A stretch of DNA of 64,000 nucleotides, from the NCBI GenBank assembly GCA_973895155.1, contig OZ316899.1, positions 186,001 to 250,000 of the forward strand. Direction: 5' to 3'. Numbering within the stretch: position 1 is the stretch's first letter; the number at the start of each line of letters is the position of its first letter. The DNA is from Marsupella aquatica (lineage: Eukaryota > Plantae > Marchantiophyta). The translations under genes and the position numbers were made by a program. The notes under the pieces were generated by a model. That model was not told the origin of the DNA and did no database searches. It worked only from the letters and a program-made list of their open reading frames with translations. Of the stretch, positions 2-40,706 are shown one piece after another.

Positions 2-3000
2 CAACCCACGGCCCGAGCTATCAGATTAGCAAACGGGGCAAGGGTCCTCCCATTAGGCACGCTCACACGAGTGCTCACTCTGGTGGGAGGGGTAGAGTTC
101 TATCTCAACTTCTTAGTCATGAGGCCGGTTCGTCCCTCCTCTTATCCGGTTCTTCTGGGCAGGCCGTGGTTGTACGGTGGCCGCGTAGTCACGGATTGGG
201 GAAAGAAGGAGCTACGGTTTGGGGAACCCACCGTACGGGTATCCTGGGCAATGGACGATTATCAGGGAGAAACCCCACAAGGACCCGAGGAATATGATTC
301 GGAGACCTCGGAGGAAGAGGAACTCAATATGATCGAACTCATCTCGTCCCTATCCGAGGAAGATGTCTTCGGAGTTGAAGCAACCCGAGAAACACATCTC
401 CTAAATTACCCGAGGGCTGCCATTGAGTCCACCCCAAGCACATCTACTGTCGGGGATGAGGAAACGCACGAACAACTCGTCGAGACGGAGGACACGGCTC
501 CAGCTAAGCAGGGAGCCGAGGCTACTCCTTCCATTTCAGAGCCTCGTAACCATGAACCAGCCCAACAACCGCCTGAGGCCGGAAACTCGAGACCGAGACA
601 TAAAAAGCGAGTCTCATGGGATCCGTCCATTCCGCAATTGGAGGAAGTAAACCCCATCCCGAGACCAATCCCGGTCCCACCCATGTACGGAGGGGTTCGG
701 TTAGCTGAGCTTGACGCGAGCCTGGACCCGAGTCTGCGAAACCAGGTTGAAGTCATCAGGAAGGAGCACTACCGGAAGTACACTATTGGGATGGACAAAT
801 CTTTTAACCTGGGCCAAGCTCTGACGGGGAAGGCTGAAAAATCCATCCAAGCTTTGCTCAAGGAATATGAAGATGTGTTTGCATGGAGTCATCATGATTT
901 AACAGGCGTCTCCCCCGAGTTGGGAGAACACACGATCGATCTGAACCTAGGAGCCCATGCGGTACGACAGCGACAACGTCGCATGAATCCGAGGTACTCC
1001 ATCTTAGTGAAGGAGGAAATTGATCGTCTCCTCGCCACCGATATCATTTACCCGGTAATGGCCAGCGACTGGGTCTCTCCCATTGTCATTGTACCAAAGA
1101 AGGGAGGTACGGATGGAAAACCTAAGATTCGTATCTGTCAGGACTACCGTAAGCTGAATGACGCAACCCGAAAAGACCATTACCCATTACCATTCACGGA
1201 TATGGTTCTAGATATGGTGGCCCGAAATAATCTATACATTTCTTGACGGGTATTCAGGTTATAACCAAATCTGGATTCGTCTCGCGGATCAGCTCAAAAC
1301 AACTTTCACTATGGAGTGGGGGACGTTCGCATTTCGGAGGATGCCTTTTGGTCTGTGTAACGCCCCGGCTATGTTTCAGCGCCTTATGATGAATATCTTC
1401 CACGATTTCCTACGGGAATTTTTGGAGATATTTATCGATGACTTTGCCATCTTCGGAACCGTTGCCATGCACCCCGAACACCTACGACGAACGTTGCAAC
1501 GATGTCGAGATGTTAACCTCAAACTACATCCCGCCAAATGCTTCTTCGGGGTAGAGGAGGGGGTGTTACTCGGGCATCGTGTGTCCAAACGGGGCATTGA
1601 GGTGGACCAAGAGAAAGTTGCGGCCTGGATGGCGGTGGTGTTCCCCTTGGATCAAAAAGCAGTACGATCCTTCTTGGGCTGCGTAGGGTATTACCGCCGG
1701 TTCATTAAAGACTTTGCTAAAATTGCGTTGCCCTTAACTGAGATGATGAAGAAGGACGCAGCGGTCGAGGAGACACCCCGAAGACGGATTGCTTTTGAGG
1801 AACTCCGTAAACGACTCACCACCGCGCCTATCATGGTCACCCCAGACTGGAATAAGGAGTTCCACGTGTATGTCGATGTGTCAGGGTTCTGTATCGGATC
1901 CGTACTTAGTCAGCTAGATGAGGATGGACGTGATCACCCCATCTATTTCGCTAGCCGTCAACTATTTGCAGCCGAAAAGAATTATTCCCCCACTGATCGA
2001 GAAGCTTTGGGAATAATCTACTCGTGTAAAAAGTTCCAACACTATCTGCTAGGCTACAAGGTCATTTTCCACACGGATCATGATAGCCTGAAGTACATGG
2101 TCAACAAAGCGGATATGACAGGACGGATAGCCCGGTGGGTGCTACTTCTCCAGGAATTTAATTACGAAGTTCGGGTTCGGCCAGGAAGGGTACACCTCAA
2201 TGCCGATTTCTTTTCACGACTGGACGGCGTACCAGTCGATCAGCCAATTGATGATATTTTTCCGGATGAGGAGTTGTTCCACGTGGGGGAAGGGACACCA
2301 ACGTGGTACGGCTCAATAATCACCTTCCTTTTAACGGGCCGCATCCCTGACGGCATCAATCAGGAGGCCGCCGCTGTGTTTTTACGGAAAGCCGGGCCTT
2401 ACGTCATGATACAGGGTCACCTACATAAGGAAGGTATTAACGGAAAGTTACGACGCTGCTTAGAGTATAAGGAGACACTTATTGTGATACGGGCCCTGCA
2501 TGAAGAAGAAGCTGGAGGCCATTTCGCGGCAGTTACGACAGCCCGAAAGATTCTGGACTCGGGGTATTGGTGGCCTACGTTGCATCGAGATGTACAGCGC
2601 TTCATTAAGGGCTGTGACTTGTGTCAGTGAGCGGGGGCCCCGAGGCGGGCTCATCATCACCCGCTCACATCTGTGCTTCCATTGGCACCATTCGAAAAAT
2701 GGGGAATTGATTATATCGGGCCGTTCACTCCCGTTACCCGAAGGCGAAGGTGAAGGTACATCCTATTAGCTATTGATTACTCCACCAAATGGGTCGAAGC
2801 GCGGGCTACGGTAAAGGATGACGCTGCAACCAGTGCCAGATTCTTATACGAACAGATTTTCACCCGATTCGGACCGCCCTTAGAATTGGTAAGCGACCGT
2901 GGAACCCACTTCCTCAATGACACCATAGCCCAGCTTACGGAGCGTTACCTAGTCAAGCACCGCAAGACTACCCCATATCATCCTAAAGCCAACGGGATGG

Positions 3001-3644
3001 CGGAGAGAGCAAATGGTATCATTGGGAAGATCCTCAACAAAACTGTAGCTGCGCACAAAACGGATTGGGATGATAAGTTGTACGCAGCGGTGTACTCGTA
3101 TAATCTAGCTTACAAAACTACTACGAGTCACAGCCCGTACTTTCTGGTGTTCGGCCAACATTCGTTGGTGCCCGTCGAATTTGAAGTGCACACTCCACGG
3201 GTCAGCATTCGGGATCGCTTACCTGAATCTGAAAGTCTGTCAGACCGAGCTTATCAGATTGAAGCCTTGGAAGAAGCACGGCTACTGGCAGCTCGACACA
3301 CCGTGAAGAAACAGGCAACTTCGAAGAAGCAGCACGACAAAGGACTACGGAGGGTCGACGTCGTGGCAGGCGATCTAGTCCTTCTGTACGATAGTAGGTA
3401 CATGCAGTTTCCAGGGAAGCTGCATACCCGGTGGTTGGGGCCCTTCCTTGTCAATCAGATCTACCGAAACGGATCTTTGGAGCTTGCGACGTATGCCGGC
3501 GATTTACTCCCCATGCGAATCAGCTACGATCGTGTAAAAAAGTACCACCATCAAGATGACGACGCCGATAGCGATGTTCGCGAGGACGCTTCACAATTAA
3601 GCAGGGAGCTATGTGACGCCGCCGGTACGGCGGTTAATGAGTGA
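2..3644 (+). pseudogene. pol: gypsy pol (protease C-terminal half, RT, RNase H, integrase with HHCC, DDE and GPY/F module), disrupted
   Basis: Motifs: IRLANG...LLGRPWL (PR); WVSPIVIVPKK, ICQDYRKLN, MPFGLCNAP, FIDDF (RT); DVSGFCIG, EALGII, TDH (RNase H); H..GGH..CDLC, WGIDYIG, SDRGTHF, NGMAERAN (IN); WLGPF. There is one frameshift near 1237 (tac-a-ttt-ctt-gac-ggg restores FLDGYSGYNQI) and two in-frame TGA stops (2628-2630 and ~2751). Confidence 0.95.
3594..3611 (+). other. candidate polypurine tract
   Basis: Purine-rich aagcagggag lies immediately 5' of the LTR start. It is short and imperfect. Confidence 0.45.
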
Positions 3645-3969
3645 TTCAGTCTAACTGTGCTCGGCACGCGCGTTAGGTGGGTCTTAGGCCGCTATTATTA
3701 GCATAACGACAGTATTTAGATAATCATTAGGGGTAGGACATCATTAGGCAATAAGGGGGACTTCAGGTTCGGGCTGGCGGCGGGTCGCTATTCGCACACC
3801 CGGGTTACGAGCGTGGAAGGGCCCCTCCCTCGGGTCCGTATAACGAACTTAAGGAAGCGGCCACTGACGCACGCTAACTCAGACCGGCGGAGTGGCCGGT
3901 ACACCACAAGCGTGAGCGGTTCAGCCTATGGGCGTCGAGGAGACGTCGGGGATCGACAAGCCCTCAAAG

Positions 3970-3977
3970 TATAAAAG
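3970..3977 (+). promoter_or_regulatory. TATA box of LTR-A
   Basis: TATAAAAG about 100 bp upstream of the LTR-internal ATG (4078), conserved in the second copy (36482-36489). Confidence 0.6.
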
Positions 3978-4077
3978 GGGAGCCAACCCTTTGTAGTGCA
4001 CCAGTCCATCAGTCCGCGCGCCAGCTTCGACCCCAGCTCTCTCGTTCTCTCTAGGTCGCCACTACTATCTCCTCTGA

Positions 4078-6720
4078 ATGTCGCACACGATCCTCTCCAG
4101 CTCGGCCATTCGATTCTGGACGCAGTTCCTATCTACCGGAAGGCACTTGGCCGATTCATTGAAACACGCCAACCCGCGCCGATACGAAATCGAACGCGAA
4201 TACGAGAGAGCCATCCGCCTAGCAGGACGACACCACTACGTCCTTAACTTTGACTACCCGTCTCAGAGCGAGCTTTACCGACCAGCAGAGGTATCTGGGT
4301 ACTTCTTCAACGAAGACAAATATATCGGGTTCTGGGAAGCATTGCTTCGGCTTCCGGACGAGGTCTTCAATATCCCGGGTACAATCGACCTGCAGCGACA
4401 TCACTTCGACCACATCCCTGCCCGGGTTCGGGCTGTCATTAACGGCGAGTCCAATACCAACCGTTCGACAAGAGCGTCCGCACTCGCTTCGGAGAACTTC
4501 TACCAGCACCTGCAGAGCTTCATGGGAACTCGGCCATCAACCAACATGACCAACTCAGCCGGGCCCGTACCCGTACCCGTGCCCATGCAACCTCAGGCTC
4601 AGCTTCAGCTTCAGCCTCAGCCGCAGCCTAGCCAAACCCCACCACCTATCACCCAGCCAGCACAGGTACGCTCCGTCATCAACGCTGTGGATCTTAGCGA
4701 TGACGACGAGGCTACCCCACCCTTGACCAGGCGGCCCAGAGGAACAAGCGCTCGGGGGGCCGACACTATATCGTCCCCACCCCCTTCTCTGACCCCAGGA
4801 GCGGCCCCAGTAGACAACATGGTGACCGTGGCCGCCCCGGGCCCGTTACCAACCGCAGTGGCACTCCCCAGGCCCGATCGGGAGGATGGGGAAGTATCAC
4901 CTTCCCCGAGTCAGTCACCGGGAAAGAAGAGGAAGGAATCCGCCACTACATCCGGGTTACCGTTGGCCACGGTAGCCGTAGCCAAGGTGACGATGCACCG
5001 CATGGGGGAAAACGTTCACAGCAACATCCTCCATCCCAAGCATGCGGTGTACCTGAAGACTCAGGGATTTGAGCACCTCACCTCTCTCCCCTGGAACACT
5101 TGCAGGTACTACGGGGAGGACATGACAGAATTCGTCAAGAATTATGACGACGTACGTCAATAGACTCGGCTGCGGGGAAGGAATATGTCCCTCACAGAAG
5201 AACGGCTCAAGATGATCTTTGGGTTACCCGAAGGTGACCATCGAGTCGAATCACGGGCTCCCGGGGGCAAGGGGACCAAGTACCAATCTTCAAGTTTTCC
5301 CTCAGAGGGAGTAGTAGACAACGGGTTCGTGATGAGGACCTGCCTCATGCCCGAGATAGCTGAGCGGCTGGAGTTCCAAAGGTACGCTCTCCACATGATG
5401 GAACCCCGAGGGGAGATCTCCGCCACCCAGGTTATCCAGGTCGAGAACTATCGACCTAGGAAATGGGCGTCGTACTTCGCTAAGAAATTCCATGAAGAGA
5501 TGGAGCGGCGAAGGAAGACGTTGTACATTGGCGGGAAGGCGTATTTCGCTAGCCACATCGAAATCATTCTTGAGTGGTACGCTCGGTTTGATCGACGAAC
5601 CCTTCCCCGCATCAACGTTACAAAGCTGGTTCCAGCTAGGTGGGTTTTTCCGGCATTGGAGAGACGGCCCCAACCTGAGGCCCGAAGTCCAGTGGACACG
5701 CCAGCTTCACCCACCCCACCTCCACAAATAGCTGTAACCGTAACCGAGGAGGCGCCGGAGGGGTCGGTCGTTGCAACCGTTGATGCGACCCAACTAGCCG
5801 GGCTAAGTACAGAAGTTGGTATGGCAGAGGTCTTACCCGAACCCGGGTCTCCCAAGGACCCGCCGGTGGCAATTCTGGAGAACCGGACATCGCTGCAGGA
5901 GGACACTCCAGCCCCTTCCAACGTTATGTCCCCAGGGCTAGACGTCACTGCCCCGGCCCCTGCGCGTGTTGACGTCTGCCCGTGCCCAAATCCGGACAGG
6001 CACAACTTGGACCACCCGGAACTCTTCGTACAGGGTACGTTCCTGAACGGGCTTCTGGGAGATTTCTCTCATCAAATTGCCCGGGATACCGGGGAGTTCA
6101 TGGCCCGGAAGGTAGCCTGTTTCTTCAATCAGGAGTTGGTTGCCGCCGTAAAGGCAGGTCGGGCCGAGTCGGAGGCCCTTCAGAGGATAGAGCGGTACCG
6201 GGTGGAGTCCGTGTACCTAAAGAACAAAGTGGCGGCTCAAGAGGCTGAGCTTCTGGCACTACGACCCAAGGTTGCAGCCGCCGATGAGTTGTTAGCAAAG
6301 GCGTACGCTCTTACCGCCCTAGCCGAACAGGCCAAAGCTGGGAACGAGGCCAAGATTACACGACTCCGGAACCAGATTGACAGTTTGAAGAAACAAGCTG
6401 TCACCTGGCAGAAAGACCTGGAGGAGGTCGAGGAACGAGCCCAGCGGGACACGGCGGAGATAGCCACGCTGCAGGCCGAGATGGCGCGGCTCCAAACCGA
6501 GGCCGAGAAGCAGGACCAGCTGGCGGGTAAACTGACGAGCGACGCCCAGCAGCTGGAGGAGGCATGTCAGGAGGCAGTAGAGGAGACGGACGTGGCGAGG
6601 CGAGAGAACGAATCTCTGCTGGACCAGGTCCAGCTCCTCAAAGCGGACAATGACAGGCTTCGAAGGCAGCGGGATGGCCGTTCCCATTCGAGCGGCTCTG
6701 GCAAGCGTGCCAGGCATTAG
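4078..6720 (+). pseudogene. LTR-internal ORF (~880 aa): N-terminal domain, P/Q-rich linker, plant retroelement accessory domain (Transposase_32/PMD-like), C-terminal coiled coil; one premature stop
   Basis: ORFs 4078-5163 and 5185-6720 are in the same frame, separated only by TAG at 5161-5163, which reads CAT in the other copy. Core motif YLKTQGFEHLTSLPW...EFVKNYD...LRG..MSLTEERL..IFGLPEG...LEFQRYALH; the C-terminus is heptad-rich. Confidence 0.85.
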
Positions 6721-8055
6721 CGGCGGAGTAGGAATAGATTAGGATTAGGATTGGCTTAGTCAGGCTCTTGGGACAGGCACCTGCCTTAGGTACAACAGCG
6801 CTGCCCTGCTGTCCAGCCTGCGTAGATTAGGATCTTCTAATAAGACACAGCCGTTTTCCGGCCTGACTGTCAGCTTAGTTAGGACCTTAGTCAGCGAATC
6901 TTCGGCGAGAGGACACCCCGTCCCTCGGCTCTTAGTATTTAGTGTACCCCTCGGTAGAGGCAGGGGGGTTTTTAGTTTCAGAGTCGGACATCCGCGGGAT
7001 ATGCGGGGAGTCCCGACCTCTGGGAATGACAGAGTACCAAGGGGAGGGGGTAGGACTAAGCTCGTCGGGCGAGTGCGGAGCCGGGCTCCGTTGTAGTGTG
7101 CACCCTCGGCCTTGAACCTGTTCATTCCAGGGCTGTCGGGTCAACTAAGTGTACGCATATGTTCCCTTTGTAGTAAAATCCTTTCCCATCATTTTCCTTC
7201 GTGTAAATCGAGATTGTATGCATGTGTGCGCATATGTGTGTGGGTTTCTCATATATGGGTGGCAGCGCCAGGCCGAACGCACTACCCGAGACGTGCACAG
7301 GGTGCAGCCTGCGGGTAAGTGGTTGCGAGCACGGGTTGAGGACCGGTATCATCGAATCCGGATCGAAGGCGGACAGCACGAAGGCTTAGAAGCCCTTAAG
7401 CCGGGGTCGATCCTGCTATCGACTAAGGTACGTTCCGGCGGCGGAACACAAACCATACCTAGGAGGTGTCCGTATTTAGCAGTATGCGCACTTAGCGCTA
7501 GTTTACGAGAATAAGGTGCATTACGTGCTTCCCTTCCTGCCCGAACCCTCAGGTTTACGAGGGATGTGCCCGTCTAAGCTGAAGTCTGAGTTAAGGCCAA
7601 AGCCTACGATGTGACACTGTGGCTTTGTTACTTTTTGTGTTCCGACACTTTGCATCCTTTTTTAGTAAAGTAGTTGATTTTTGTCAAATTTTGAAGAGAG
7701 AGTGGGTGAGAGAGACAGAAACAGACGTGGGATTGCATTGCGACACTGGGCAGGCAGATAGGCCAAAGGAATTGACAATAATCTGACAACCCTGCATCAC
7801 CGATGCCTTGGAACTAGCACAGAATGAGGCGTTGGCAACTACCTCTACGTAGCCCACCCATGCTCCAAGAAATCTCAGTTGCCCTTTCCCTCATAGGATG
7901 AGCTGGATGTCACGACTCCAAGGTTCCACTACATCTAACAGAGCATCTTTAGTGTCATTACCACTACATCTGTGTTCCTTGGGGTGATCAGATCTAGTGT
8001 CTTGAGTCAAGCATTTTCCGCCTGTTGTTGATAGTGGGACTCAACAGAGCTCAAT

Positions 8056-8161
8056 CTTACTTAGAATATCCAGAATCATCTCCACCATTACCTCCCCATG
8101 GCACACCTTACTTAGAATATCCAGAATCATCTCCACCATTACCTCCCCGTGGCACACCTTA
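8056..8161. repeat. 51-bp tandem duplication (x2)
   Basis: cttacttagaatatccagaatcatctccaccattacctcccc(a/g)tggcacac starts at 8056 and 8107. Confidence 0.9.
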
Positions 8162-8549
8162 TTAAAGCTGCTCTTACCGATCCAGGACTATGACCTTCAC
8201 ATTTGTCACTTTGAGAAAACATCAACTAACAATATATAGGTGTTTGCAGCAACTCTGATATTTGTGGGGGCTAATGAGAGAGAAACCAAAGTCGCAGCAC
8301 ATTTATACATGACCAAGGGGGGCAGAGTCTACACTTGTCACAAGCTCCAGCAGGAGGTCGCTCATGGTTTGGGAGATCATTTAAGATTTGTAATGTTTTA
8401 AGATTTTCAATGCAAGACTTTCACTGCAATGGACAATAGATGTTAAATTAGATGTGACCTTTGTGACGCATTCTTGCCTCTGTGAAAGTATATCGTGCTT
8501 ATTGTCAAGAGATTGTCTCACAAATGTATATCCTTCCTTTTGACTTTTG

Positions 8550-13190: not shown

Positions 13191-13686
13191 TCTTCTGACC
13201 ATGTTGTCATTATTATAACAAAAATTAAAGATCTTTATTTAGTCCAATTTCAACTCACAAATTTCCAACCATACTTTGATAACCTACAAGCAATTTTTAT
13301 AGATAATTTTTGGTTACATGCATGAATGATCTTAGTGTACACATATATGACATTGAAATCTACAATTTATTATGTAACCCTGAGGATTATCATTACAATG
13401 ACAATAATTCTTTTGAATCCCATGGGGAAACCTTTGTATTTTATCTCATTCATATCCTTGAAATGGTGTTGCAGAGTTCTTTGGCTCTTCATGTGAACAC
13501 AAAATCAAGGTGTAGGGTGAGCAAATTTTGTAGTAGTGGGTCAGATCTCTGCGTGGGCTCACCAAACTGAAGGTAGGGCTGGTGTCCATCCTATACACAG
13601 TGACACTTCCAATTCATTCCGATTACAGCAAATGTCTTTCCAACATGCCAACTAAACTGCGATGTCGATCTTATTGATTTGTAGGC

Positions 13687-14367
13687 ATGGCACGTAACAA
13701 GCAGAAGGCCAAGAAGCCTAAGACGGAGGTGAGCAACACACAGGTGTCTTGCACAGATTGTGAGAAGTTCTCCAAGAGTCAGGTGTACCAGAAGGCAGCT
13801 CATTGTTGTGCCATTTGTGATGATGGTGGGGGCTTGGTTATTTGTGATGGCCCATGCATGAGACATTTCCACGTGAACCCTGAGTCTAACCTTGCCGTAG
13901 AGAACAACTGTCCAGGGGTGGGCCTCCCCTCTGCACACGAGGGAGCCTGGATGTGCACTGATTGTGTAGAGAAGCAAGCTAAGTGTGCACAGTGTGGGAA
14001 GTTGGGGTCTTATGAGACCTTTGCTGATGCCGGGCTAGTTGTTCAGAAATGCCCTGACAGATTTTGCATAAGATTTTATTGTTTGTCATGTTTGCCTACT
14101 CATGCCACAGTTTGCCCACTTCATACATGCAAGGCATGTGGTGAGCATAATGATGAGTATTGGACAGACATAGTCCATTGTGTTAGATGTCCCACAATGT
14201 GGCATTTTCATTGCTTGAAGGACCTTCAAGCAGAAGGCTATGCTTGTGACAGAGAAATCTATGATCACTCTGCACATGGCGTTGATCGATGGATCTTTTA
14301 TTGTCATCGCCATCCGATTGATCCTACTTTGCGCATTCCTGTCAGAGATCACATATCTTGGCTTTGA
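13687..14367 (+). CDS. stand-alone EDM2-like PHD zinc-finger cluster protein (226 aa)
   Basis: CAICDDGGGLVICDGPCMRHFH; CTDC..KQAKCAQCGKLGS; CP..FC.RFYC..C; CPLHTCKAC; CVRCPTMWHFHCL; WIFYCHRHPIDPTLRIPVRDH. This matches the PHD array and IYC..H.ID..L.TP.RDH tail of plant EDM2. A tttgtag acceptor lies 2 nt before the ATG. Confidence 0.85.
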   Translation: MARNKQKAKKPKTEVSNTQVSCTDCEKFSKSQVYQKAAHCCAICDDGGGLVICDGPCMRHFHVNPESNLAVENNCPGVGLPSAHEGAWMCTDCVEKQAKCAQCGKLGSYETFADAGLVVQKCPDRFCIRFYCLSCLPTHATVCPLHTCKACGEHNDEYWTDIVHCVRCPTMWHFHCLKDLQAEGYACDREIYDHSAHGVDRWIFYCHRHPIDPTLRIPVRDHISWL

Positions 14368-14838: not shown

Positions 14839-15015
14839 GTGAGCACCTAAACATCAAATTTATCCCTTTTTGTACTCCTAAATCTTGAATGATTCATAAA
14901 TTTAATGATAAAAGTTACAACTTACGGCATTTCGGTACTCAGATCTTAAATGGTTCGTGTATATTTGACCGGAATTGTAATTTTTACTAAATAAATTATT
15001 GTTCTTACATGGCAG

Positions 15016-16380
15016 ATGGGAAAAAGAAAGCGTAATACTTTAAGAAAAAAAGAATTGGGGGAAGATTTTTCTGTGGATGTATTTGTTACAGTGTGGGAAG
15101 ACCTCAAAAAATTAGATACCATAAAATTGAAGTTTGCACTTCATTGGATTCTATGCCATGACAACATCCTTGAACTTTTTGTTAAAAAAGTTCTTAAACT
15201 AGAGTCTTCAAGATTTTCAAGAACACTATTCTTGAATGGGTATCAAAATTGTAGAAGCCATATCATTCAGATCTTTCCTCCTGAGGTGTTCATTGAAATT
15301 GATGACGTCTTTCTTCATCACAGTTTCAGACTAAAATTACCTCAACCTTTGAAAAAATCAATTACCATGTTTTCTAATCTTGACATTAGAAAGCTTAAAC
15401 TTTTTCAAAAAGAAAGAGATAATATTTATAGAAGTGGAGGAACTTATGCCAAAGTTGAAGTAGACGTTCAACGTATTTCCTCTTCAAAACTAAAAACACT
15501 TACGGGTGTAATTTTAGGCGATTGGGATCAAACTACAACAACATTTACCTCTGATCCAAACTTTATTTTCTCAAAATTTCCATCAGACCTCATTATCATA
15601 GAAGAAAAAAAAGGATTTACCTATCTTTTTGATAGGTCTGGAATCAACCCATATTTGATAGCAATGATATTCCATCAAGATATCCTATCACCTGATTCAA
15701 TGATCTTCATTCGAAGATTATTAGAACAATTATATGCTGCCCATCATGTTATCCAAAGAGGGAAAGGAAAAAGATCATGGGAAAGTAAGATGACAGGGTT
15801 TGGTCCTTTTCATAATCCTTACAAAAAAGATCAAAGTTGTGTATCTTTTTATACTCATGAACAAAAGATAAAGACATTCTTCAATCAAGATTGTCCTGAT
15901 GCAGCCAATTTTGAAGACATGGTAGATAAATATTTTCATCGAGAGTTAATCGATATTATACTTGGACTCTACATGTGGTTATGTCCACAAATGTTAGACA
16001 GTTTTTTAGATTATTCTCATCCTTACTTACGTTCAAATGATTATGAGATGAACATATTTGATAAAGCACTAAAATGTAAAGGTCCTAGTGCTTATCAATT
16101 ATATATTAGTAAAGATTATTGTGTAGAAACTCACGCTGATCATGATACAGCAGAATTTACTTTATGTTATGTTAGTCATCCTGATGCCAAAATTTCTCCT
16201 GGAAACTTTATTATTCCAGAGTATGGAATATTATTACCTATTAGAGATGGTAATTTATTTTCATTTCGTAGTGACATTGTCCATGGCACAGGATATAGAA
16301 TTCCAACATCAAATCCTATATACGTAGGAGCTGTTACCATAAACAAAAAATTAGATAGACTTTTACAAAGAAAACATTAA
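15016..16380 (+). CDS. 2OG-Fe(II) dioxygenase, TET/JBP-like (454 aa)
   Basis: C-terminal DSBH signature: KMTGFG; YQLYISKDYCVET-H373-A-D375-HD; GNFIIPEYGILLPIRDGNLFSF; IV-H423-GT. Intronless and visibly AT-rich relative to the flanks. The N-terminus carries a basic NLS-like stretch (KRKR...RKK). Confidence 0.75.
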   Translation: MGKRKRNTLRKKELGEDFSVDVFVTVWEDLKKLDTIKLKFALHWILCHDNILELFVKKVLKLESSRFSRTLFLNGYQNCRSHIIQIFPPEVFIEIDDVFLHHSFRLKLPQPLKKSITMFSNLDIRKLKLFQKERDNIYRSGGTYAKVEVDVQRISSSKLKTLTGVILGDWDQTTTTFTSDPNFIFSKFPSDLIIIEEKKGFTYLFDRSGINPYLIAMIFHQDILSPDSMIFIRRLLEQLYAAHHVIQRGKGKRSWESKMTGFGPFHNPYKKDQSCVSFYTHEQKIKTFFNQDCPDAANFEDMVDKYFHRELIDIILGLYMWLCPQMLDSFLDYSHPYLRSNDYEMNIFDKALKCKGPSAYQLYISKDYCVETHADHDTAEFTLCYVSHPDAKISPGNFIIPEYGILLPIRDGNLFSFRSDIVHGTGYRIPTSNPIYVGAVTINKKLDRLLQRKH

Positions 16381-18317: not shown

Positions 18318-19823
18318 CTAAGTGTAATTGTAATCTGTAAACATATCAAAGTGAATTCGCTCCATGGTCGTGTTGTCCCTTTGATCAAGTGCAGCATATC
18401 GAGCTTCCCGGTCTTCATCTACTTGCTCTTGTCTTGCATGACACTGAGCCCATCTTCTCCTACTCATGTCATTCCTAAATGTCATTTGTCTCTCCTCTCT
18501 CTGTCCGGGGGTTTCCTCAACCATACCTTCCTCATTGTACAGTTTATACACACCGGGTCCTCGCTTGTCTGAAAGTTGTAGTTCATCATCAATGTCCTCT
18601 TCTTCCAGGGATTCAGTAATGAGGTAGGACTTACTGACACCTGTAGCACTTCCCCATCTTAGCATAGGTAGCTCACCTTTCAGAAACCCAGCTGCCACCA
18701 TCAAATTGTACATCCTAGCAGCTGAAGGCCCTGCTCGACTAAATAATTTCCACAAATCTAGACCACCATCCTCCATCTCTCCAGTAACTGAGATGCGTAC
18801 ATCTGCTTTCTTGCCTGACCTTCCCACAACTTCGTATAATGTTCTTGTGAAGCAATACCATTTAAAATACCGGGGATCCTTGAGCATGTTGTTGTATGTT
18901 TCAATGTGATGGACACTCCACAACCATTTCTCGATCTGCTCCAAAAAACTTATCTGCTGATTTGTCTTGTAACTAGGTGTCATTAGTATCCGGATACTTG
19001 GATGGTGCTGCCAGATAGAAAAGTAAGTGGGGGTCGCTTCATACATAACAGCTATTCCATCCTGTCCTTCTATGTGATCTCCCTCTCGCACTTGGTAATC
19101 CTGTGGTGGATCATGATATCCCCAAAGCAAAGCGGGACCAAAGTACTTCCCAATATTATAATTATACACACCTAGCTCTAACCATGTAATAACTACTTCT
19201 GTGGGAGTCACTGCTTCCCAATAACTACTTTTCTCCAAGTGAACCAAAGATACATCTTCTGGGTTAAAGGGGTATACATCATTTCTAAAGTAACCCCCTT
19301 GACGAGCCACCACCGCTGGGTCACGCCTCAATTCATAAAAGAACCTCATTGCCAAGTGACTAAGCTCAGGTGCAATTGGTAGATTAAAACTCATCCAATC
19401 ATCAGATACTACTATGTCAGAGGTGAAAAATGGGTTGAATGCTACAGTAACCCCGTCCCTCTCCATCTTCTTCCACTGGGCAGCCTGCAAAAATGTGATG
19501 AGTCGGGGAAGTGTATACTTCCCACAATTGATCCGTACTTCCCGAGCAGCCCACGTTTTCAATATCAAGGGCAACAACTCATATAACTTACTATAAACAT
19601 CTAGACAACATTTTCTCTGGTTATCCCTCTGTGCTAATCCCTCATGAACCATATTAGCCATTGCTTTAAGTGCAATAAAAGTTTCATTTTGAGGATGCTC
19701 CCTTTCTAATTCCGACAACATGAATTGAGCTATTCGACTGTTAGCCCGGCCTCCTAATCTATAAGACAAATCCTCAGGTAATTGTACATTAATATGTCCA
19801 GACCACTCAAAAAAAGGCAGCAT
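18318..19823 (-). CDS. hypothetical protein (501 aa), unrecognised; acidic/charged C-terminus
   Basis: Uninterrupted 1.5-kb ORF with globular-looking composition, starting 68 bp downstream of the 716-aa ORF on the same strand. Confidence 0.6.
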   Translation of the reverse strand: MLPFFEWSGHINVQLPEDLSYRLGGRANSRIAQFMLSELEREHPQNETFIALKAMANMVHEGLAQRDNQRKCCLDVYSKLYELLPLILKTWAAREVRINCGKYTLPRLITFLQAAQWKKMERDGVTVAFNPFFTSDIVVSDDWMSFNLPIAPELSHLAMRFFYELRRDPAVVARQGGYFRNDVYPFNPEDVSLVHLEKSSYWEAVTPTEVVITWLELGVYNYNIGKYFGPALLWGYHDPPQDYQVREGDHIEGQDGIAVMYEATPTYFSIWQHHPSIRILMTPSYKTNQQISFLEQIEKWLWSVHHIETYNNMLKDPRYFKWYCFTRTLYEVVGRSGKKADVRISVTGEMEDGGLDLWKLFSRAGPSAARMYNLMVAAGFLKGELPMLRWGSATGVSKSYLITESLEEEDIDDELQLSDKRGPGVYKLYNEEGMVEETPGQREERQMTFRNDMSRRRWAQCHARQEQVDEDREARYAALDQRDNTTMERIHFDMFTDYNYT

Positions 19824-19891
19824 GAATCTAATCCTTATGGGGACTTCATCCCAAATCTGATCCCAATCTCCAGGTCTGATATCCCTTTTAT

Positions 19892-28200: not shown

Positions 28201-28512
28201 ATTATATCGAACTGCTTTTTGCTCAAATGGCTCCCCTGACCCTTGCAACTTGAATGTCTTCTTGATAGAATCCAAACTCAAGTCTATTCTTCCCCCACAA
28301 ACCCATGTTTCAGATTGTTCACTGTCAAAGTTCCGGATGAAATCTATCATGTCAGACTTAGAATGACTCTTAGTGTCCCAACGAACTCCCAAAACACAGT
28401 CTGCAAGCCCATTGTGCTGAAGATATTCTGAATGTCGCGCTTGACACAATGTTGTCACCACAAGTGGTGGGATAAAATAGAATGTTGGCATCGCCATAGG
28501 CTTGGAAGACAT
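25296..28512 (-). CDS. spliced fusion gene: retroelement accessory domain + coiled coil + C-terminal TRF-like (telobox) Myb domain, ~772 aa; exons complement(26950-28512, 26446-26602, 25978-26258, 25642-25838, 25455-25521, 25296-25349)
   Basis: All five introns have consensus ends (gtattg, gtatgt, gtgagg, gcaagt [GC donor], gtaagt; AG acceptors) and the phases (0,1,0,2,0) join without stops. The last three exons give KRWSKEETNCLKQAVRRFGPGKWSRILASEGAHFIDRSEIDLKDKWRNL. Exon 1 has YLQHNGL...W...DFIRNFD...GGRIDLSLDSIKKTF...ERLEFQLGALH...FGSHLQILL, homologous to the LTR ORFs. The 5' start is uncertain. Confidence 0.85.
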
Positions 28513-28680
28513 CGTTGTCCCTTCTTGCCACTAGTAGGTATGTACACCAAACCTCTGGTGGCACACTATCTTGGTTTGATATCAGTTTGATATGTAGACA
28601 AATGTCATGCTAGACTCTGGTGACAATGAGAATGGTCGTGCTCCCCAGGTTCTTACAATAGTCTACGAGCCCATTACAAT

Positions 28681-30294: not shown

Positions 30295-30728
30295 AAATAT
30301 TGAGGCGAGACCAAGGAAAGAACTATACACTCCTTGGGACAAATCAATAGTAGATTTATGAAGGTGAGTACCTTAACATCAAAATTCCCCCTTTCTTCCC
30401 ACCTAGTACATGTTGAAATATTCATAAATCTAATGATAAAAATTACAACTTACGGCATTTCGGTACTCAGATCTGAAATGGTTCGTGTACTATTTGACCG
30501 GAATTGTAATTTTTACTGAATTGGAATTAAAATCTTGAAAAAAATTCTGTGGATTTGTTTGCTACAGTGTGGGAAGATCTAAAAAAATTGACACCATAAA
30601 ATTGAAGTTTACACTTTATTGGATTCTTTATTATGAAATATTCTTGAACTTTTTGTTAGAAAAGTTCTTAAACTAAAGTCCTCAAGGTTTTGAAGGACAC
30701 TATTTTTGAATGGCTATCAAAGATGTCA
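30295..30728 (+). pseudogene. degenerate partial duplicate of the 5' part of the TET/JBP-like locus (small exon, intron, N-terminal coding region)
   Basis: Colinear with ~14775-15250 (e.g. ttacaacttacggcatttcggtactcagatct; cagtgtgggaaga; accataaaattgaagttt). It has indels and stops and lacks the catalytic domain. Confidence 0.88.
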
Positions 30729-32976: not shown

Positions 32977-35900
32977 TTATTTTTCTACTTCTAACTACTC
33001 CGTTTTAATTCCTACATTACTTACCTAGTTCTAACCTAACAAAAATTGTGGGCCCCTCCCACTACCCCCTATTGCGGGACCGTTTTGCCGAGCTCTCATA
33101 GCCAGACGCACATCGTGCCCGTTCCTTGTAACGGTCACGATCCCTTTGCAAGATTGCCACCTGCTCCTCCAATTCCGTAACGCTTGCTCGTGCAGTCTCT
33201 ACTTCGGCTGCAGTTTCCAAGAACTCATCCCTCAGCTGCGTGGCCTTGTACTCCATCTGGAGAATTTGTGCCACGTGGCCATCTTTCGCCTCGGCTAACT
33301 CAGCTGTAGCTGAGGCTTCCTTAGCCGCAGATTCGGCTAACTGCTCCTTCAGACGAACAACCTCTGCTCCGCTTCCCTCTTCCATAGCCATAGTCGTGCG
33401 CTTGTTAGCTGCATCTAACTGACGCTTAAGTTGAGCAATTTCTTGTTGCTGGAATATTATTTTCCCATCCCTAGATGACTTCTCTAGCTCGTAGACTTTG
33501 AACGCCGCCTGCCCTATTGCTAACTCCTTCTTGTCTTTGATGGTGTTGTTGCGGCATTCGACCAGCTCTTCCTCTCGAGTAGTCAGCTCTACTCTCAATT
33601 CTTTGAACTGTTCCTGGAGTTGTCCCAAACTCTTCTTTGTGAACTCCAGCTCCGCATTCCTAGCCGTTACGATGGAGGTTGAGGTTTCCAGTCGTTCTTT
33701 AAGGGTTGCCACCTCCGCCACATTGTGTGCCGCAAGAGAGGACTCTGTTGCTAAGTCTTGCTTGGCCTTAGCCAACTCCCTCTCCGTTATGACTAGTCGT
33801 GCCACCTTAGCCGCAACCTCATTTGACACCACCTTAGCCGTAGCTAGTTCCACCTTGGCCGCCGTTAATTCCTCTCTCAACGCAACCACTTCCCTCTCTA
33901 GCTGGATTCGTGCCTCCACTACATCGTTGGCCCTTATCACTTCCTGCTCCCTTAGTGCCCTATCTCGATCCAGCTCCTCGAGGATACAATGTTTCATTAG
34001 TTGGACGGCTGTGAGTCCCAACTTGTATGAAACATCTAAATGGAACGCATGAAGTCTGTTGTCCAAAGTATCCTGGCCCACAGCCTGGAAATTTCTAGGA
34101 CGTGGTTTCGTCTCCCTCTCAATTGTTGAGCTAAGCTGAGCCAGCGCATCCGCAGCTGTCCCCTGCGATGGTGCAGCCTCTTCTGGTTCAGTAGGGTATC
34201 CCGAGGGCCCATCCTCTCTCCCTTCGTCGCTCGCCAAAAAACCGGGTTCTATAGCAGTGGCTACGACATCATCGATCGCGTTTGATGGTACTACCGTATC
34301 CGCGGAATTCGCCGTTGCCGCAATTGTTTCCACTTCATCCTTCTCCAGCCCTTCTGTGGTCGGTGGCGACCCTTCTCCTTCTTGGCCATCCTCCTCCTCG
34401 TCACCCATTCGAAGTCTTTGTTGGCGCTTGTTGACCAGCCTTGGTCTTGCAACCTTAGCCGTTGCTGCCTTCTTAGCTGTAGAAGACTTGTCATGGATCT
34501 CGACGCCCTTTGCCGTAACATCCTTGGCCTTATCCGTGGCAGCCTTCCACGTAACTACGGCTACCGTTCCCTTGGTCGCTTCCTGGCTTGTGCCGGGCTC
34601 TTTTACCCGTGTACTTGCGGGTCCAATTGTAAACGCTTGACCCCTTCTCTCCGTGAACTCTGCTGCTTTGGGATATTTCCAATGGAAGGTGGCGAGGTAG
34701 TCGTGCCTGAGTTTTGGAAGGCATAGTGACCATCCTCGTGAATACCATTCAAGAATAATCTCAATGTGACTGGCTGCATAAAATTGACCCCCAATGCTTA
34801 AAGCTCTGCGCCCACTGTCCAGCGTCATATGTAGCTTACGGGTAAAGTGGGTGGCCCAACTTCGTGGCCTGGTATCCTCCGTCTGTAACACTTGGGCCAC
34901 CGAAATCTCCATTCGTATCTCCACCATATGGAGTGCATAGCGTTGGAACACGATTTGTTCCCGAGTTTGATCGTTGATACACTTTCTCAAAGTGTATCCG
35001 TTGGCACATCGGGCATCAGAATTGAAACCCGTTGGCTTGTATTCCTCGGTCTCCTGGGTGGTCAGCCTTAGTTCCACCTTGTCTTTGCCTTCGGGCAAGC
35101 CAAAGATGCATGTAAGCCTGTCCTGACTTAGGGACATGACCCTCTCTTGGATCATCGTGCACTCGTCCTCTGCCCTAAAATTCTCCAGGAAATGATAAAT
35201 CAAATCGTTGGTGAAGCGATTTGTACACCACGGTAAGGAGACAAAATGCTCAAACCCCTGGGCCTTAATATACTCTTGATTGGCCTCCATGAGCATATCC
35301 CTTTGCGCTGCCTGGTCCATGCGGACAGGGACAAGACTTACATCTGGGGATGCTTCCCTAGACGGCGGGGTCTGGGCCTTCCTCTTCTCCTTACCCTTAC
35401 CCTTATTACCCGCAGTCCTAGCCATTTCCTCTCCTTCCGGTGTTCGCTGCTCCGCCGTTGCTAGGGCTGTGGGTGGTATTCTCCTCGCTCTGCGTTTCAA
35501 CTTTGGACTCGATTGTGCTGAGCCGGAGCCGCTTGCTGTTTGCTCGGTGTTGCACACCTGTCGCATTGCTGTGGACACTTGCTCGATCGGGGCTGGCTGG
35601 CCGTGCTGAGGCCTGATGCTTGTCTCCGCGCCCCCTCCTCCGAGCTTTCTTAGCGATGGCAATGTAGAGCTTGATGGTCCCGCTGCTACGATTGGTTTAG
35701 AGTGCAAGAGCACAATTGTAGTGGCTGCCAATGACTCATCCACTTTGTCAAGGTCTATCACTGGTCTTAGAAGCTTAGCGCTCTCCCTCGCTATCTCCTC
35801 CCGTTCCTTCACTTGCTCCGGTGCAAAGTATGTTGTAGCTCGTGCATGCAACTTGTCGAGGTGGGCTCGATTCAGTCTTCCTGACCCCAGAAGACTAAAG

Positions 35901-36481
35901 CACCATTCTGGAAGTCGCACTAGAGCTTCATTTATCGACAAGAACTTCTCGGACTTGTCGAAGAAGAGTTTGCTCACCACCCCTTCGCCTACTACTTGTG
36001 GATCCACCTGCAAGGGTTGATTGATACAACAGTGGCCGCTAATCTCAGATAGTAGTTCTACCCCTAACCTCTTTTCATACTCATACTTCTTTGGTTGTAG
36101 CTTTTTGAGTGAGTCTGCTAACTGTGACGCCGCCGGTATGGCGGTTAATGAGTGATTCGGTCTAACTGCACTCGGCACGCGCGTTAGGAGTGTCTTAGAC
36201 TGCTATTATTAGCATAACAACAGTATTTAGGTAATCATTATGGGTAGGATATCATTAGGCAATAAGGGGGAATTCAGGTTCGGACTGGCGGCTGGTCGCT
36301 ATTCGCACACCCGGGTTACGAGCGTGGAGGGGCCCCTCCCTCGGGTCCGTATAACAAACTTAAGGAAGCGGCCACTGACACGCGCTGACTCAGACCGGCG
36401 GAGTGGCCGGCACACCACAAGCATGAACGGTTCAGCCTATGGGCGTCGAGGAGACGTCGGGGGATCGACAAGCGCTCAAGG

Positions 36482-36489
36482 TATAAAAG
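36482..36489 (+). promoter_or_regulatory. TATA box of the solo LTR-A
   Basis: TATAAAAG about 100 bp upstream of the ATG at 36590. Confidence 0.6.
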
Positions 36490-36589
36490 GGGAGCCAACC
36501 CTTTGTAGTGCACCAGTCCATCAGTCCACGCGCCAGCTTCGACCCCAGCTCTCTCGTTCGCTCTAAGTCGCCACTACTATCTCCTCTGA

Positions 36590-39220
36590 ATGTCGCACAC
36601 GATCCTCTCCAGCTCGGCCATTCGATTCTGGACGCAGTTCCTATTTACCGGGAGGCACTTGGCCGACTCATTGAAACACGCCAACCCACGCCGATACGAA
36701 ATCGAACGCGAGTACGAGCGAGCCATCCGCCTAGCAGGATGACACCACTACATCCTTAACTTTGACTACCCATCTGAGAGCAAGCTTTACCGACCAGTAG
36801 AGGTATCCGGGTACTTCTTCAACGGAGACAAATATATCGGGTTCTGGGAAGCATTGCTTCGGCTTCCGGACGAGGTCTTCAATATCCCGGGTACGATCAA
36901 CTTGCAGCGACATCACTTCGACCACATCCCTGCTCAGGTTCGGGCTATCATCAACAGCGAGTCCAACACTACCCGTTCGACAAGGTCGTCTGCCCTCGCT
37001 TCGGAGAACTTCTACCAGCACCTACAGAGCTTCATAGGAGCTCGGCCAACAACCAACATGACCAACTCAGTTGTACCCATACCCGTACCCGTACAACCTC
37101 AGTCTCAGCTTCAGCCTCAGCCGCAGCCTAGCCAAACCCCACCACCGATCGCCCAGCCAGCACAAGTGCGCTCCGTCATCAACGCTGTGGATCTTAGCAA
37201 TGACGACGAGGCTACCCTACCCTTGACCAGGCGGCCAAGAGGAACAAGCGCTCAGGGGGCCGATACTATATCGTCCCCACCCCCTGCTCTGACCCCAGGA
37301 GTGGCCCCGACAGACAACATGGTGACCGTGGCCGACCCGGGCCCGTTACTAACGGCAGTAGCACTACCCAGGCCCGATCGGGAGGATGGGGAGGTGTCAC
37401 CTTCCCCAAGCCAGTCACGGGGGAAGAAGAGGAAGGAATCCGCCACTGCATCCGGGTTACCATTGGCCACGGTAGCCGTGGCCAAGGTGACGATGCACCG
37501 CATGGGGGAAAACGTTCACAAAAACATCCTCCATCCCAAGCATGCGGTGTACCTGAAGACTCAGGGATTCGAGCACCTCGCCTCCCTCCCCTGGAACACT
37601 TGCAGGTACTACGGGGAGGACATGATGGAGTTCGTCAAGAATTATGACGACGCGCGTCAACATACTCGACTACGGGGAAGGAGTATGTCCCTCACGGAAG
37701 AACGGCTCAGGATGATCTTCGGGTTACCCGAAGGTGACCATCGAGTCGAATCACGGGCTCCCGGGGGCAAGGGAGCCAAGTACCAATCTTCAAGTTTTCC
37801 CTCAGAGGGAGCAGTGGACAACGGGTTCGTGATGAAAACCTGCCTCATCCCCGAGATAGCTGAGCGACTGGAGTTCCAGAGGTACGGCCTCCACATGATG
37901 GAACCCCGGGGGGAGATCTCCGCCGCCCAGGTTATCCAGGTCGAGAACTATCGACCTAGGAGGTGGGCGTCGTACTTCGCTAAGAAATTCCATGAAGAGA
38001 TGGAGCGGCGAAGGAAGACGATGTACATTGGCGGGAAGGCGTATTTCGCTAGCCACATCGAGATCATTCTTGAGTGGTACGCCCGGTTTGATCGACGAAC
38101 CCTTCCCCGTGTCAACGTTACAAAGCTGGTCCCAGCTAGGTGGGTTTTCCCGGCCTTGGAGAGACGGCCCCAGCCCGAGGCCCGAAGTCCAGCGGACATG
38201 CCAGCTTCACCCACCCCACCTCCACAAGTAGCTGTAGTTGTAACCGAGGAGGTACCGGATGGGTCGAGTGTCGCAACCGTTGATGCGACCCAACAGGCCG
38301 GGCTAAGTACAGAAGTCGGTACGGCGGAGGTCTTACCCGAGCCCGGTTCTCCCAAAGACCCACCGGTGGCTATTCCGGAGAACCGGACATTGCTACAGGA
38401 GGACGCTCCAGCCCCTTCCAACATTACGTCCCCAAGGCTGGACGTCACTGCCCCGGCCCCCGCGCGTGTGGACGTCTGCCCGTGCCCAACTCCGGACAGG
38501 CACAACCTGGACCACCCGGAACTCTTCGTACCGGGTACATTTCTGAACGGGCTTCTGGGAGATTTCTCTCATCAAATTGCCCGGGATACCGGGGAGTTCA
38601 TGGCCCGGAAGGTAGCCTGTTTCTTCAATCAGGAGTTGGTTGCCGCAGTAAAGGCAGGTCGGGCCCAGTCAGAGGCCCTTCAGAGGATAGAGCGGTACCG
38701 GGTGGAGTCCATGTACCTAAAGAACGAAGTTGCGGCTCAAGAGGCTGAGCTTCGGCAACTACGACCCAAGGTTGCAGCCGCCGATGAGTTCTTAGCAAAG
38801 GCGCACGCTCTTACCGCCCTAGCCGAACAGGCCAAAGGTGGGAACAAAGCCGAGATTACACGACTCCGGAACCAGATTGACAGTTTGAAGAATCAAACTG
38901 TCACCTGGCAGAAAGACCTGGAGGAGGCCGAGGAACGGGCCCAGCGAGACACGGCGGAGATAGCCACGCTGCAGGCCGAGGTGGCACGGCTCCAAACCGA
39001 GGCCGAGAAGCAGGACCAGCTGGCGGGTAAACTGACAAGTGACGCCCAGCAGTTGGAGGAGGCTTGTCAGGAGGCAGCAGAGGAGACGGATGCGGCGAGG
39101 CGAGAGAATGAATCTCTACTGGACCAGGTCCAGCTCCTCAAGGCGGACAATGACAGGCTTCGAAGGCAGCGGGATGGCCGCTCCCATTCAGGTGGCTCTG
39201 GCAAGCGTGCCAGGCATTAG
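36590..39220 (+). pseudogene. LTR-internal ORF, second copy (~876 aa); one premature stop
   Basis: In frame from ATG 36590 to TAG 39220 except TGA at 36740-36742, which is CGA in copy 1. It is open across the position where copy 1 has its stop. Confidence 0.87.
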
Positions 39221-40706
39221 CGGCAGAGTAGGAATAGAGTAGGATTAGGACTAGCTTAGTCAGGCTCTTGGGACAGGCACCTGCCTTAGGTACAGCTTCG
39301 CTGCCGTGCTGTCCAGCCTGCATAGATTAGGATCTTCTAATAAGACACAGCCGTTTCCGGCCTGACTGTCAGCTTAGTTAGGACCGTAGTCAGTGAATCT
39401 TCGGCGAGAGGACACCCCGTCCCTCGGCCCTTAGTATTTAGTGCACCCCTCGGTAGAGTCGAGGGGGGGGGGGGTTTTAGTTGCAAAGTTGGGCGTCCGC
39501 GGTATGTGCGGGGAGTCCCGACCTCTGGGAATGAAAGAGTACCAAGGGGAGGGGGTAGGACTAAGCTCGTCGGGCGAGTGCGGAGCCGGGCTCCGTTGTA
39601 GTGTGCACCCTCGGCCTTGAACCTGTTCATTCCGGGGCTGTCGGGTCAACTAAGTGTACGCATATGTTCCCTTTGTAGTAAAATCCTTTCCCATCATTTT
39701 CCTTCGTGTAAATCGAGATTGTATGCATGTGCGCGTGTTGGTTTCTCGTATATGGGTGGCAGCGCCAGGCCGAACGCACTACCCGAGACGTGCACAGGGT
39801 GCAGCCTGCGGGTAAGTGGTTGCGAGCACGGGTTGAGGACCTGTATCATCGAATCCGGATCGAAGGCGGACAGCACGAAGGCTTAGAAGTCCTTAAGCCG
39901 GGGTCGATCCTGCTATCGACTAAGGTACGTTCCGGCGGCGGAACACAAACCATACCTAGGAGGTGTCCGTATTTAGCAGTATGCGCACTTAGCGCTAGTT
40001 TACGAGAATAAGGTGCATTACGTGCTTCCCTTCCTGCCCGAACCCTCAGATTTACGAGGGATGTGCCCGTCTAAGCTGAAGTCTGAGTTAAGGCCGCAGT
40101 CGATGACGTGACACTAACGTTACTCCTATCTGGACAAATTTGATCCAGAAAGCATACGCCGTCCCTTCATTCAGCATCTGGTTATTGGAGAACTTACGGG
40201 TAAGGAATGACTGCGATTTCTTATCCATAATCTAGCTGCAATTGCTCTCTGTACTCCTGATTCTCTCGAGAAACTTTGTGCGTCTATCGATTGGAGCTAC
40301 TCGTAGCTAGGGCGAGCGAAGGTCGATCGAACCAGCAAAGCAAGGGAATTGCGAGTGTGAATAATGAAGGTTTGGGGTGGCCTTGCTTGCCTTACCCTCT
40401 CCGCTGTGGTTGAAGTCCCTCGTGCTAGTGCCGCCGCCGGTCCCAACCATGAGAATCTGCATCGATTTCACGTTCTTGGCGTATGACTTATCCGCGTACG
40501 GCGTACTTACTCCCGGGAACATAGTGACGGCCATCACTAATAACCGAAGGGAACCTTCATCTTTAACGGCTGTCAGTCTACTCTTCTTCTAACTACTCTA
40601 GTCCCCGTCATTACGTGCGTACTTCACTCTTTCTACGTACCTTCTACCTAATTACCCCGTCTAAACTCCGTATCTTGCGTATACCCTATTCTTTAGCCGC
40701 GTCACA

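Follow-up and report, generated by a model that had tools for sequence, protein, structure and literature searches.

The window analysed here comprises 64,000 nucleotides of the liverwort Marsupella aquatica (contig OZ316899.1, positions 186,001 to 250,000 of the forward strand) and contains near its start a Ty3/gypsy retrotransposon whose 3' long terminal repeat (LTR, 3612-7616) almost certainly encloses a gene. This gene is an open reading frame (ORF) of 880 codons whose product includes a core domain that, judging from its structural model, very probably has the fold of VANC21, an anti-silencing protein of a DNA transposon. What would be new is a bryophyte gypsy lineage whose LTR has a built-in accessory gene of predicted VANC fold. 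The features are listed in Table 1.

Two copies of the LTR unit were identified in the window. Copy A (3612-7616) and copy B (36123-40113) are 93.3% identical over 4016 alignment columns, both starting with TGTGAC and ending with GTGACA, and copy B is bounded by CTAAC on either side (36118-36122 and 40114-40118). An earlier sequence-only reading had proposed an LTR at 3612-7616 with a solo copy flanked by target-site duplications (TSDs), and this stands. A 5-bp flank match is weak by itself, being present in 10 of the 3975 TG..CA pairs of the window where about 3.9 are expected, and therefore the ends were fixed by independent lines as well. For the start, a profile of the pol-end motif and polypurine tract (PPT), made from five metagenome elements only (L001, L002, L003, L006 and L007), has its best window match at 3576 with a score of 21.5, the next being 13.1; the distance from the motif to TG is 36 nt in the window and 35 nt in the profile's elements, and the PPT directly abuts the TG...CA unit. 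For the 3' end, contigs in four of four public runs, one of which may be the source sample, exit at 7616/7617 into differing flanks. Copy B has the features of a solo LTR: it is TSD-flanked, has no internal region and is located inside a split ORF, that of the homologous element C, with N-terminal-domain matches on either side (E 4e-13 and a weak 0.07). The 4-kb unit showed no long direct repeat in its interior and is thus not a small element with short LTRs of its own. The summed contig depth was even over the whole unit including the ORF, at 4.5-5.1 times the pol depth in runs X1-X3 (a ratio that is not a copy number; X5 was excluded as erratic, with pol bins from 3 to 25,601), and this excess fits many solo copies. 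Two side observations concern the LTR ends. In several members a short inverted repeat resembling a hairpin was seen by eye in the first 20-30 nt (window 3612-3640; L006 2525-2546; L007 2626-2650), and the flank at 7617-8200 is a low-copy repeat, the contigs of other runs continuing before 7618 with different sequence, maybe from empty or different insertion sites.

The relatives of the element were identified by a scan of metagenome contigs with the pol alignment, which gave 80 loci, the seven closest being L001-L007. In six of these seven (L001-L004, L006 and L007) a purine tract and TG are found about 15-90 nt from the pol stop, and the ORF begins about 435-770 nt further into the LTR, usually after a TATA-like box; the ORF start of L007 was identified by eye at a contig end, and L005, in which only some 330 nt follow the last pol frame, was left out of this comparison. 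The order with the PPT before the ORF is a lineage-wide trait. In L001 and in L002 a single contig spans both junctions, with TCCCACA, then TGGCGCCGCTGCCGGGGA (the primer site) and gag on one side, and TGTGGGA after pol on the other, this LTR start being the inverted partner of the LTR end TCCCACA. Their order is LTR end, primer-binding site (PBS), gag (by Pfam on L001), pol, PPT and LTR start. The contigs continue past the 3'-LTR start for 869 and 1370 nt, respectively, and in this stretch, which contains the ORF start, there is no second occurrence of the 5'-LTR end, so the ORF lies within the LTR in these two elements too.

Homologous ORFs are open over 632 codons in L003 and 641 codons in L006. 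The hidden Markov model (HMM) of the core matches L004, L006, L003 and L002 (E 1e-8 to 0.02), and a profile-to-profile comparison of five metagenome ORFs with the window family gave 97.4% and E 1.4e-11, L007 being outside the alignment. The exact 27-nt LTR-end pattern had no match in the metagenome contigs. Among the seed-plant-like loci, those with LTR pairs (L018, L039 and L042; 648-1565 nt aligned) had no ORF of at least 200 aa in the repeats and no core match. A core-HMM match of L056 upstream of the reverse transcriptase (RT; E 0.005, two short pieces) was treated as noise. As a side observation, the 3' LTR part of L001 (180-677) and L006 (5440-5843) contains two-copy repeats with a period of 250-280 nt, which recall tandem VANC targets.

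The pol region is broken into three frames, with Pfam matches to RVT_1, RT_RNaseH, Integrase_H2C2 and rve found on 1212-3641 in the order RT, RNase H and integrase. The integrase frame overlaps the LTR by 33 nt, and the protease label on the pol start was given by eye, without a Pfam match. Calypogeia fissa has the closest named pol proteins (67-69% identity), followed by Riccia, which by itself makes a leafy-liverwort host likely. In the tree the window, Calypogeia and L001-L007 are grouped in a clade of 22 rows (97/92), separate from the seed-plant rows (100/100); this tree has only a midpoint root and no named reference lineages, six short-match loci were omitted and some rows are proteins without DNA context, so that the six changes counted for the layout label mean nothing. 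Among Athila-clade features the 5-bp TSD is present, and an extra archaeal RNase H or chromodomain has no Pfam match in the window pol pieces or in L001 pol, as in Athila. A primer site of Asp type was seen only in the relatives L001 and L002, whose motif we take to be that of tRNA-Asp. In TSD length, in domain set and, through its relatives, in primer type the element resembles Athila, of which it is a candidate member only.

Phygy and Selgy elements are likewise non-chromoviruses of non-seed plants, with an internal region that is almost all polyprotein as in L001 and L002 (PMC6317226). They differ in having a 4-bp TSD and tRNA-Trp/Ala primers, as against the 5-bp TSD of the window and the Asp-type PBS of its relatives, and no extra ORF is reported for them in the account given there (PMC6317226). 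Membership of Phygy/Selgy was rejected on TSD length.

The LTR encloses the TATA box (3970), the ORF (4078-6720) and a non-coding spacer of 896 nt, as previously read. The gene had also been called complete; the 880-codon frame was confirmed, but each copy carries one premature stop (5161-5163 in A and 36740-36742 in B), and at each stop the other copy has a sense codon. Between the two ORFs dS is 0.173, dN 0.045 and omega 0.26 (876 codon pairs, Fisher p 1.7e-18), with omega below 0.4 in five of five ORF segments. Four of the five other frames give 1.0-1.35, the fifth sharing third positions, and the lowest omega among 300 neutral simulations run at an equal transition bias was 0.43. The sole ORF indel between copies is of 12 nt and in frame. 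The 880-codon frame is under purifying selection. Divergence of the non-coding LTR parts (K 0.04-0.06) is lower than that of synonymous sites, so these parts look constrained too.

A HMMER scan seeded by four window homologues retrieved 96 proteins; word-based searches for homologues using the ORF gave nothing. Among the 22 of the 96 that were looked up, the named ones were from Calypogeia or Riccia or were annotated as 'hypothetical'. In several homologues the full layout is the same, running from the N-terminal domain through a low-complexity linker and the core to the coiled coil. The fold search with the N-terminal domain gave no clear match, the best being Z 5.2 among many near-ties. The core was modelled by AlphaFold2 with an alignment of 81 sequences (pLDDT 91.8, pTM 0.88), and its top PDB match in Foldseek was 9lnj, the VANC21-DNA structure (E 0.02, probability 0.99, TMq 0.53), the next having E 3.7. 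VIA-align over 48,161 chains retrieved VANC21 alone (Z 8.4, rmsd 4.3, 211 of 231 residues aligned; next Z 2.0), the values for 9LNK and 9LNJ being Z 8.4 and 8.2 with rmsd 4.3. The match spans the whole core domain and is clear of other rows, with a moderate score. A sequence-profile search of the PDB found nothing, and the viral fold library gave no convincing match (best E 7.6e-3, TMq 0.23). The core contains 38 K+R and 27 D+E residues. Copies A and B and element C all have a basic C-terminus, that of element C ending in KRSRNRG. No transmembrane segment was identified (maximum 19-residue hydropathy 1.05), and on this criterion an env-like ORF was ruled out.

The domain assignment of the sequence-only reading, Transposase_32/PMD, was not borne out, since PF20167 (Transposase_32) and PF10536 (PMD) have no match to the ORF at E<=0.1. 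PF20167 is sub-threshold in 3 of 50 homologues, the best reaching 30.3 bits against a cut-off of 45, and PF10536 has no match in the ORF or its homologues. Of the coiled coil and terminal KRAR that it had named, the KRARH end is present and the coiled coil is indicated by sub-threshold Pfam matches only. Its candidate of a nuclear anti-silencing or chromatin factor gains support from the VANC21 match in the structure search, not from Pfam. The product is neither VANC by host element nor PMD by Pfam score; what it would have in common with them is the fold.

Short motifs in arrays are the binding sites of VANC proteins, through whose action the transposon family that encodes them loses its DNA methylation (Hosaka et al. 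2017, PMC5735166). Structural homology links VANC with MAIN, a PMD protein, and VANC21 is predicted to have a coiled-coil region for oligomerisation (PMC13547354). The window ORF shares with VANC21 of the Arabidopsis Mutator-like VANDAL21 (PDB 9LNJ/9LNK) the predicted core fold, the coiled coil and the status of a transposon-encoded accessory protein. It differs in its location in a gypsy LTR of a non-seed plant, an identity of 10-11% and an extra N-terminal domain, and no dense array in the style of YAGTATTAY was detected in its LTR. VANC belongs to eudicot VANDAL/Mutator DNA transposons, whereas the nearest named relatives of the window ORF are liverwort proteins. MAIN and MAIL1 also have a VANC-related fold (PMC13547354), but they are angiosperm host genes that promote silencing (PMC5418596), and the window ORF lacks the PF10536 match.

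The extra ORFs of OTA gypsy elements comprise PMD in Ogre, Transposase_28 in Retand, Athila ORF-1 and Grande gene23 (PMC6317226, PMC7264820, PMC11963269). As in these, an accessory ORF, here probably of a nuclear DNA binder, is located at the 3' end of a non-chromovirus gypsy element; a remote PF20167 link exists (3 of 50 homologues) and, like Grande gene23, the ORF has its own promoter, here a predicted one. OTA extra ORFs as described there are internal, between pol and the PPT or before gag, those of Retand lying between pol and the 3' LTR (PMC11963269), whereas here the PPT precedes the ORF, so that the gene is inside the LTR, doubled in each element and kept in solo LTRs. The earlier proposal that each retrotransposition duplicates the gene is supported. 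Long LTRs reaching 5-6.5 kb are known, and no gene is reported in them in the accounts consulted. No plant case of an accessory gene enclosed in an LTR was found in searches of open-access literature, subscription papers and Repbase being outside this scope. Among animal retroviruses, sag of mouse mammary tumour virus (MMTV), nef of human immunodeficiency virus (HIV) and bel/tas of foamy viruses are located within or overlapping U3 and are copied to both ends. These are unrelated and much shorter proteins, and nef and bel only overlap U3.

The TATAAAA box of copy A is conserved in copy B at 36482, and the AATAAG site near the LTR end is also present in copy B, at 40007. In L001 a TATAAAA and an AATAAA are found about 150 nt and 1.36 kb, respectively, before the primer-side LTR end. 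Because of this TATAAAA of L001 and the weaker window candidate at 7510, a position of the gene in U3 is somewhat more probable than one in R/U5 ahead of gag. The box at 3970 would drive a self-contained transcript ending near 7150-7260 within one LTR, and the 5', 3' and solo LTRs could all produce it. The genomic RNA would start at the second promoter near the LTR 3' end, which would place the gene in U3, carried once at the RNA 3' end and copied to both ends when the plus strand is made from the PPT. The protein would go into the nucleus, form oligomers via its coiled coil, bind repeated short motifs in the DNA of family members, like VANC on VANDAL, and loosen their silencing in trans. This layout may have originated when the PPT came to sit upstream of a 3' extra ORF like those that seed-plant OTA elements keep internally. 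A purine tract (AAGGGGAGGGGG) at 7033-7052, 3' of the ORF, could be a relic PPT predating the entry of the ORF into the LTR, which is speculation. On the whole, the evidence leans slightly towards an LTR-borne, self-promoted, nuclear and oligomeric DNA-binding protein that would counter host silencing of its family, a function modelled on VANC.

Table 1. Features of the LTR-borne gene, its element and the homologues in the window (NLS, nuclear localisation signal)
Feature	Positions	Strand	Basis or remark
Broken Ty3/gypsy pol (end of protease region, RT, RNase H, integrase), three frames	2..3644	+	ORFs, Pfam
Conserved pol-end motif and PPT-like junction (AAGCAGGGAGCTA)	3576..3611	+	Abuts LTR; profile match, aligned view
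3' LTR (copy A)	3612..7616	+	4005 bp, TGTGAC...GTGACA; 3' end also from contigs of public runs
TATAAAA box, then pyrimidine-rich patch	3970..3976	+	108 nt before ORF start; predicted accessory-gene promoter
LTR-borne accessory ORF, 880 codons, one premature stop	4078..6720	+	ATG 4078, stop 6718-6720
N-terminal helical domain (~aa 1-121)	4078..4440	+	Kept in full-length homologues; model pLDDT 74.7
Core domain (aa 300-530), predicted VANC21-like (PMD-related) DNA-binding fold	4975..5667	+	Model of copy-B equivalent
Premature stop codon, copy A	5161..5163	+	In frame
Predicted coiled-coil region	6229..6678	+	Sub-threshold matches, several coiled-coil Pfam families
C-terminal KRARH, which we take to be NLS-like	6703..6717	+	Sequence
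T-rich stretch with TGTA words	7150..7260	+	By eye; candidate poly(A) region of accessory transcript
AATAAG, then pyrimidine patch	7510..7551	+	~105 nt before LTR end; weak candidate genomic-RNA core promoter
CTGTG, predicted 3' copy of the element's TSD	7617..7621	+	5' partner would be outside window
Element C, distant homologue (core 39% identical)	33062..40706	-	Starts TGTGACG at 40706; first ATG ~480 nt inside
Solo LTR (copy B) plus duplications	36118..40118	+	LTR 36123-40113; ORF 36590-39220; premature stop 36740-36742
Further core-domain homologues	26923-28530 (-), 44119-46340 (+), ~59200-60600 (-)		E also with N-terminal domain and coiled coil, broken

Several points weigh against the reading of an LTR-borne counter-silencing gene. 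For the architecture, neither the 5' LTR nor the PBS of the element itself was seen, the former being outside the window, which opens inside pol, and no PBS/gag junction at 7616 was found among the 32 of 127 contig ends viewed, where junction contigs with a short overlap could be missed. Both window copies are broken by their premature stops. With a tighter alignment of 12 sequences the link to the metagenome ORFs is weak (36.8%). The second promoter site of the window is non-canonical, and 165 nt of the L002 LTR end contain no TATA. Agreement with the VANC21 fold is moderate (Z 8.4, identity of 10-11%, a Foldseek E of only 0.02), a shared fold does not show function, and MAIN/MAIL1 share a related fold yet promote silencing (PMC5418596). 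In this LTR no dense motif array like the VANC21 target was detected, only a weak excess of 6-mers, the top ones occurring 7 times (max-count p 0.025). TCCGGA/ATCCGG is in strong excess in L001, L002, L006 and L007 (37 in the non-coding LTR of L001 against 2 expected), but the TCCGGA-rich arrays of L001 and L006 are also in their pol controls and are thus not LTR-specific. Finally, for the four other window homologues (C, D, E and the one at 59-60 kb) two LTR ends could not be demonstrated, and in Riccia two homologues carry the annotation of a fusion to Harbinger-type DDE_Tnp_4, so the domain is not confined to LTRs. Apart from this weighing, the TCCGGA/ATCCGG excess could reflect either a target motif or CCGG selectively surviving methylation decay.

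Other explanations of the 4-kb unit were considered. An independent mobile unit, either a non-autonomous element or a DNA transposon inserted by chance at the pol end, would agree with the far greater abundance of the unit than of pol and with the lack of any PBS junction for its family among the contig ends viewed at 7616. It is nevertheless very improbable, the unit beginning exactly at the conserved PPT junction, in the same order as in six related elements, and having TG..CA ends and a 5-bp TSD without long terminal inverted or direct repeats. That the ORF is a dead captured passenger is barely conceivable: the stop in both window copies is what it would have in its favour, and it is contradicted by the omega of 0.26 with its frame and simulation controls, by the in-frame nature of the only indel (12 nt) and by the open homologous ORFs of L003 and L006.

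The transcript could be laid out differently, in line with the conditional R/U5 placement of the sequence-only reading, with the 3970 TATA starting the genomic RNA and the ORF placed in a 3.2-kb R region ahead of gag; the short accessory mRNA and the long genomic RNA would then differ by poly(A) read-through in the 5' LTR. Copy A has no canonical TATAWA box other than that at 3970, and a TATA-like box is found ahead of the ORF in L001, L002, L003, L006 and L007. This arrangement, possible though somewhat doubtful, would require minus-strand strong-stop cDNA to reach about 3.6 kb and gag to be translated behind an ORF of 880 codons, and the TATAAAA before the primer-side end of L001 also stands against it. 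As to function, the same LTR gene and fold could belong to a plain LTR-promoter transactivator or to a chromatin or integration tether, not to a remover of DNA methylation. In agreement with this, the VANC fold family is functionally mixed, VANC opposing silencing and MAIN/MAIL1 promoting it, no dense target array was detected in the LTR, the extra N-terminal domain has no VANC match, and the insertion of copy B in a related element would fit targeting, as a single case. However, the sole solved structure matched to the core is an anti-silencing protein, and the core recurs in unrelated repeat contexts (five window loci, and beside DDE_Tnp_4 in Riccia annotations), which would be more in keeping with a portable counter-defence module than with an integrase partner; a transactivator or tether appears rather unlikely.

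Element C, of a second family with the same opening, has an ORF whose roughly 1050 codons cover all three domains and which is split by copy B in the N-terminal coding region; the 3' end and TSD of the element were not found. Around the three further core homologues no LTR ends or transposases were found. Outside the window, the core homologues P0066, P0079 and P0096 (the last two from Riccia sorocarpa) are annotated as fused behind DDE_Tnp_4 fragments, and the core domain may also ride DNA transposons in liverworts, going by these annotations. The ORF at 19895-22069 (-) looked like a core homologue by eye and was rejected by the profile comparison (0.2%). It lies in a stretch (18318-22069, -) of adjacent ORFs of 725 and 537 codons without Pfam match, the first with an acidic linker and a coiled-coil-like tail. 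Two other regions comprise a 461-codon ORF at 14995-16380 (+) and an intronless 893-codon DEAD/Helicase_C ORF at 41045-43726 (-), RecQ-like by eye, between C and E and probably transposon cargo. The former has no Pfam or PDB sequence match and shows an HxD...H pattern, which we presume to be like that of 2-oxoglutarate dioxygenases; a PHD-finger ORF (13678-14367) is located just 5' of it, with a partial copy at 30296-30721.

Surveys and reviews of plant extra ORFs place them internally, and a gene wholly inside an LTR is easily missed. In this lineage the solo LTR becomes a gene-bearing unit. The predicted fold ties a retrotransposon accessory protein to VANC21, and would open a direct way to test gypsy extra ORFs for a role as counter-defence proteins. 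The finding also bears on the origin of PMD/VANC-type domains, transposon or host, which is left open in the relevant part of PMC5418596, a host origin of VANC being favoured in that of PMC13547354. Tentatively, and with rather less than even confidence, we propose that a VANC-like gene for anti-silencing, complete with promoter and terminator of its own, was brought into the LTR by a bryophyte gypsy lineage, that the solo LTRs of this lineage are thousands of trans-acting counter-silencing cassettes, and that the VANC/PMD fold is an old land-plant transposon weapon predating the angiosperm MAIN genes, not one first taken from them by VANDAL. If this is true, the formation of solo LTRs, normally the host's removal of retrotransposon genes, would leave counter-silencing cassettes behind. 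If the protein is a sequence-specific demethylation factor, such factors would have a new source in the liverwort families.

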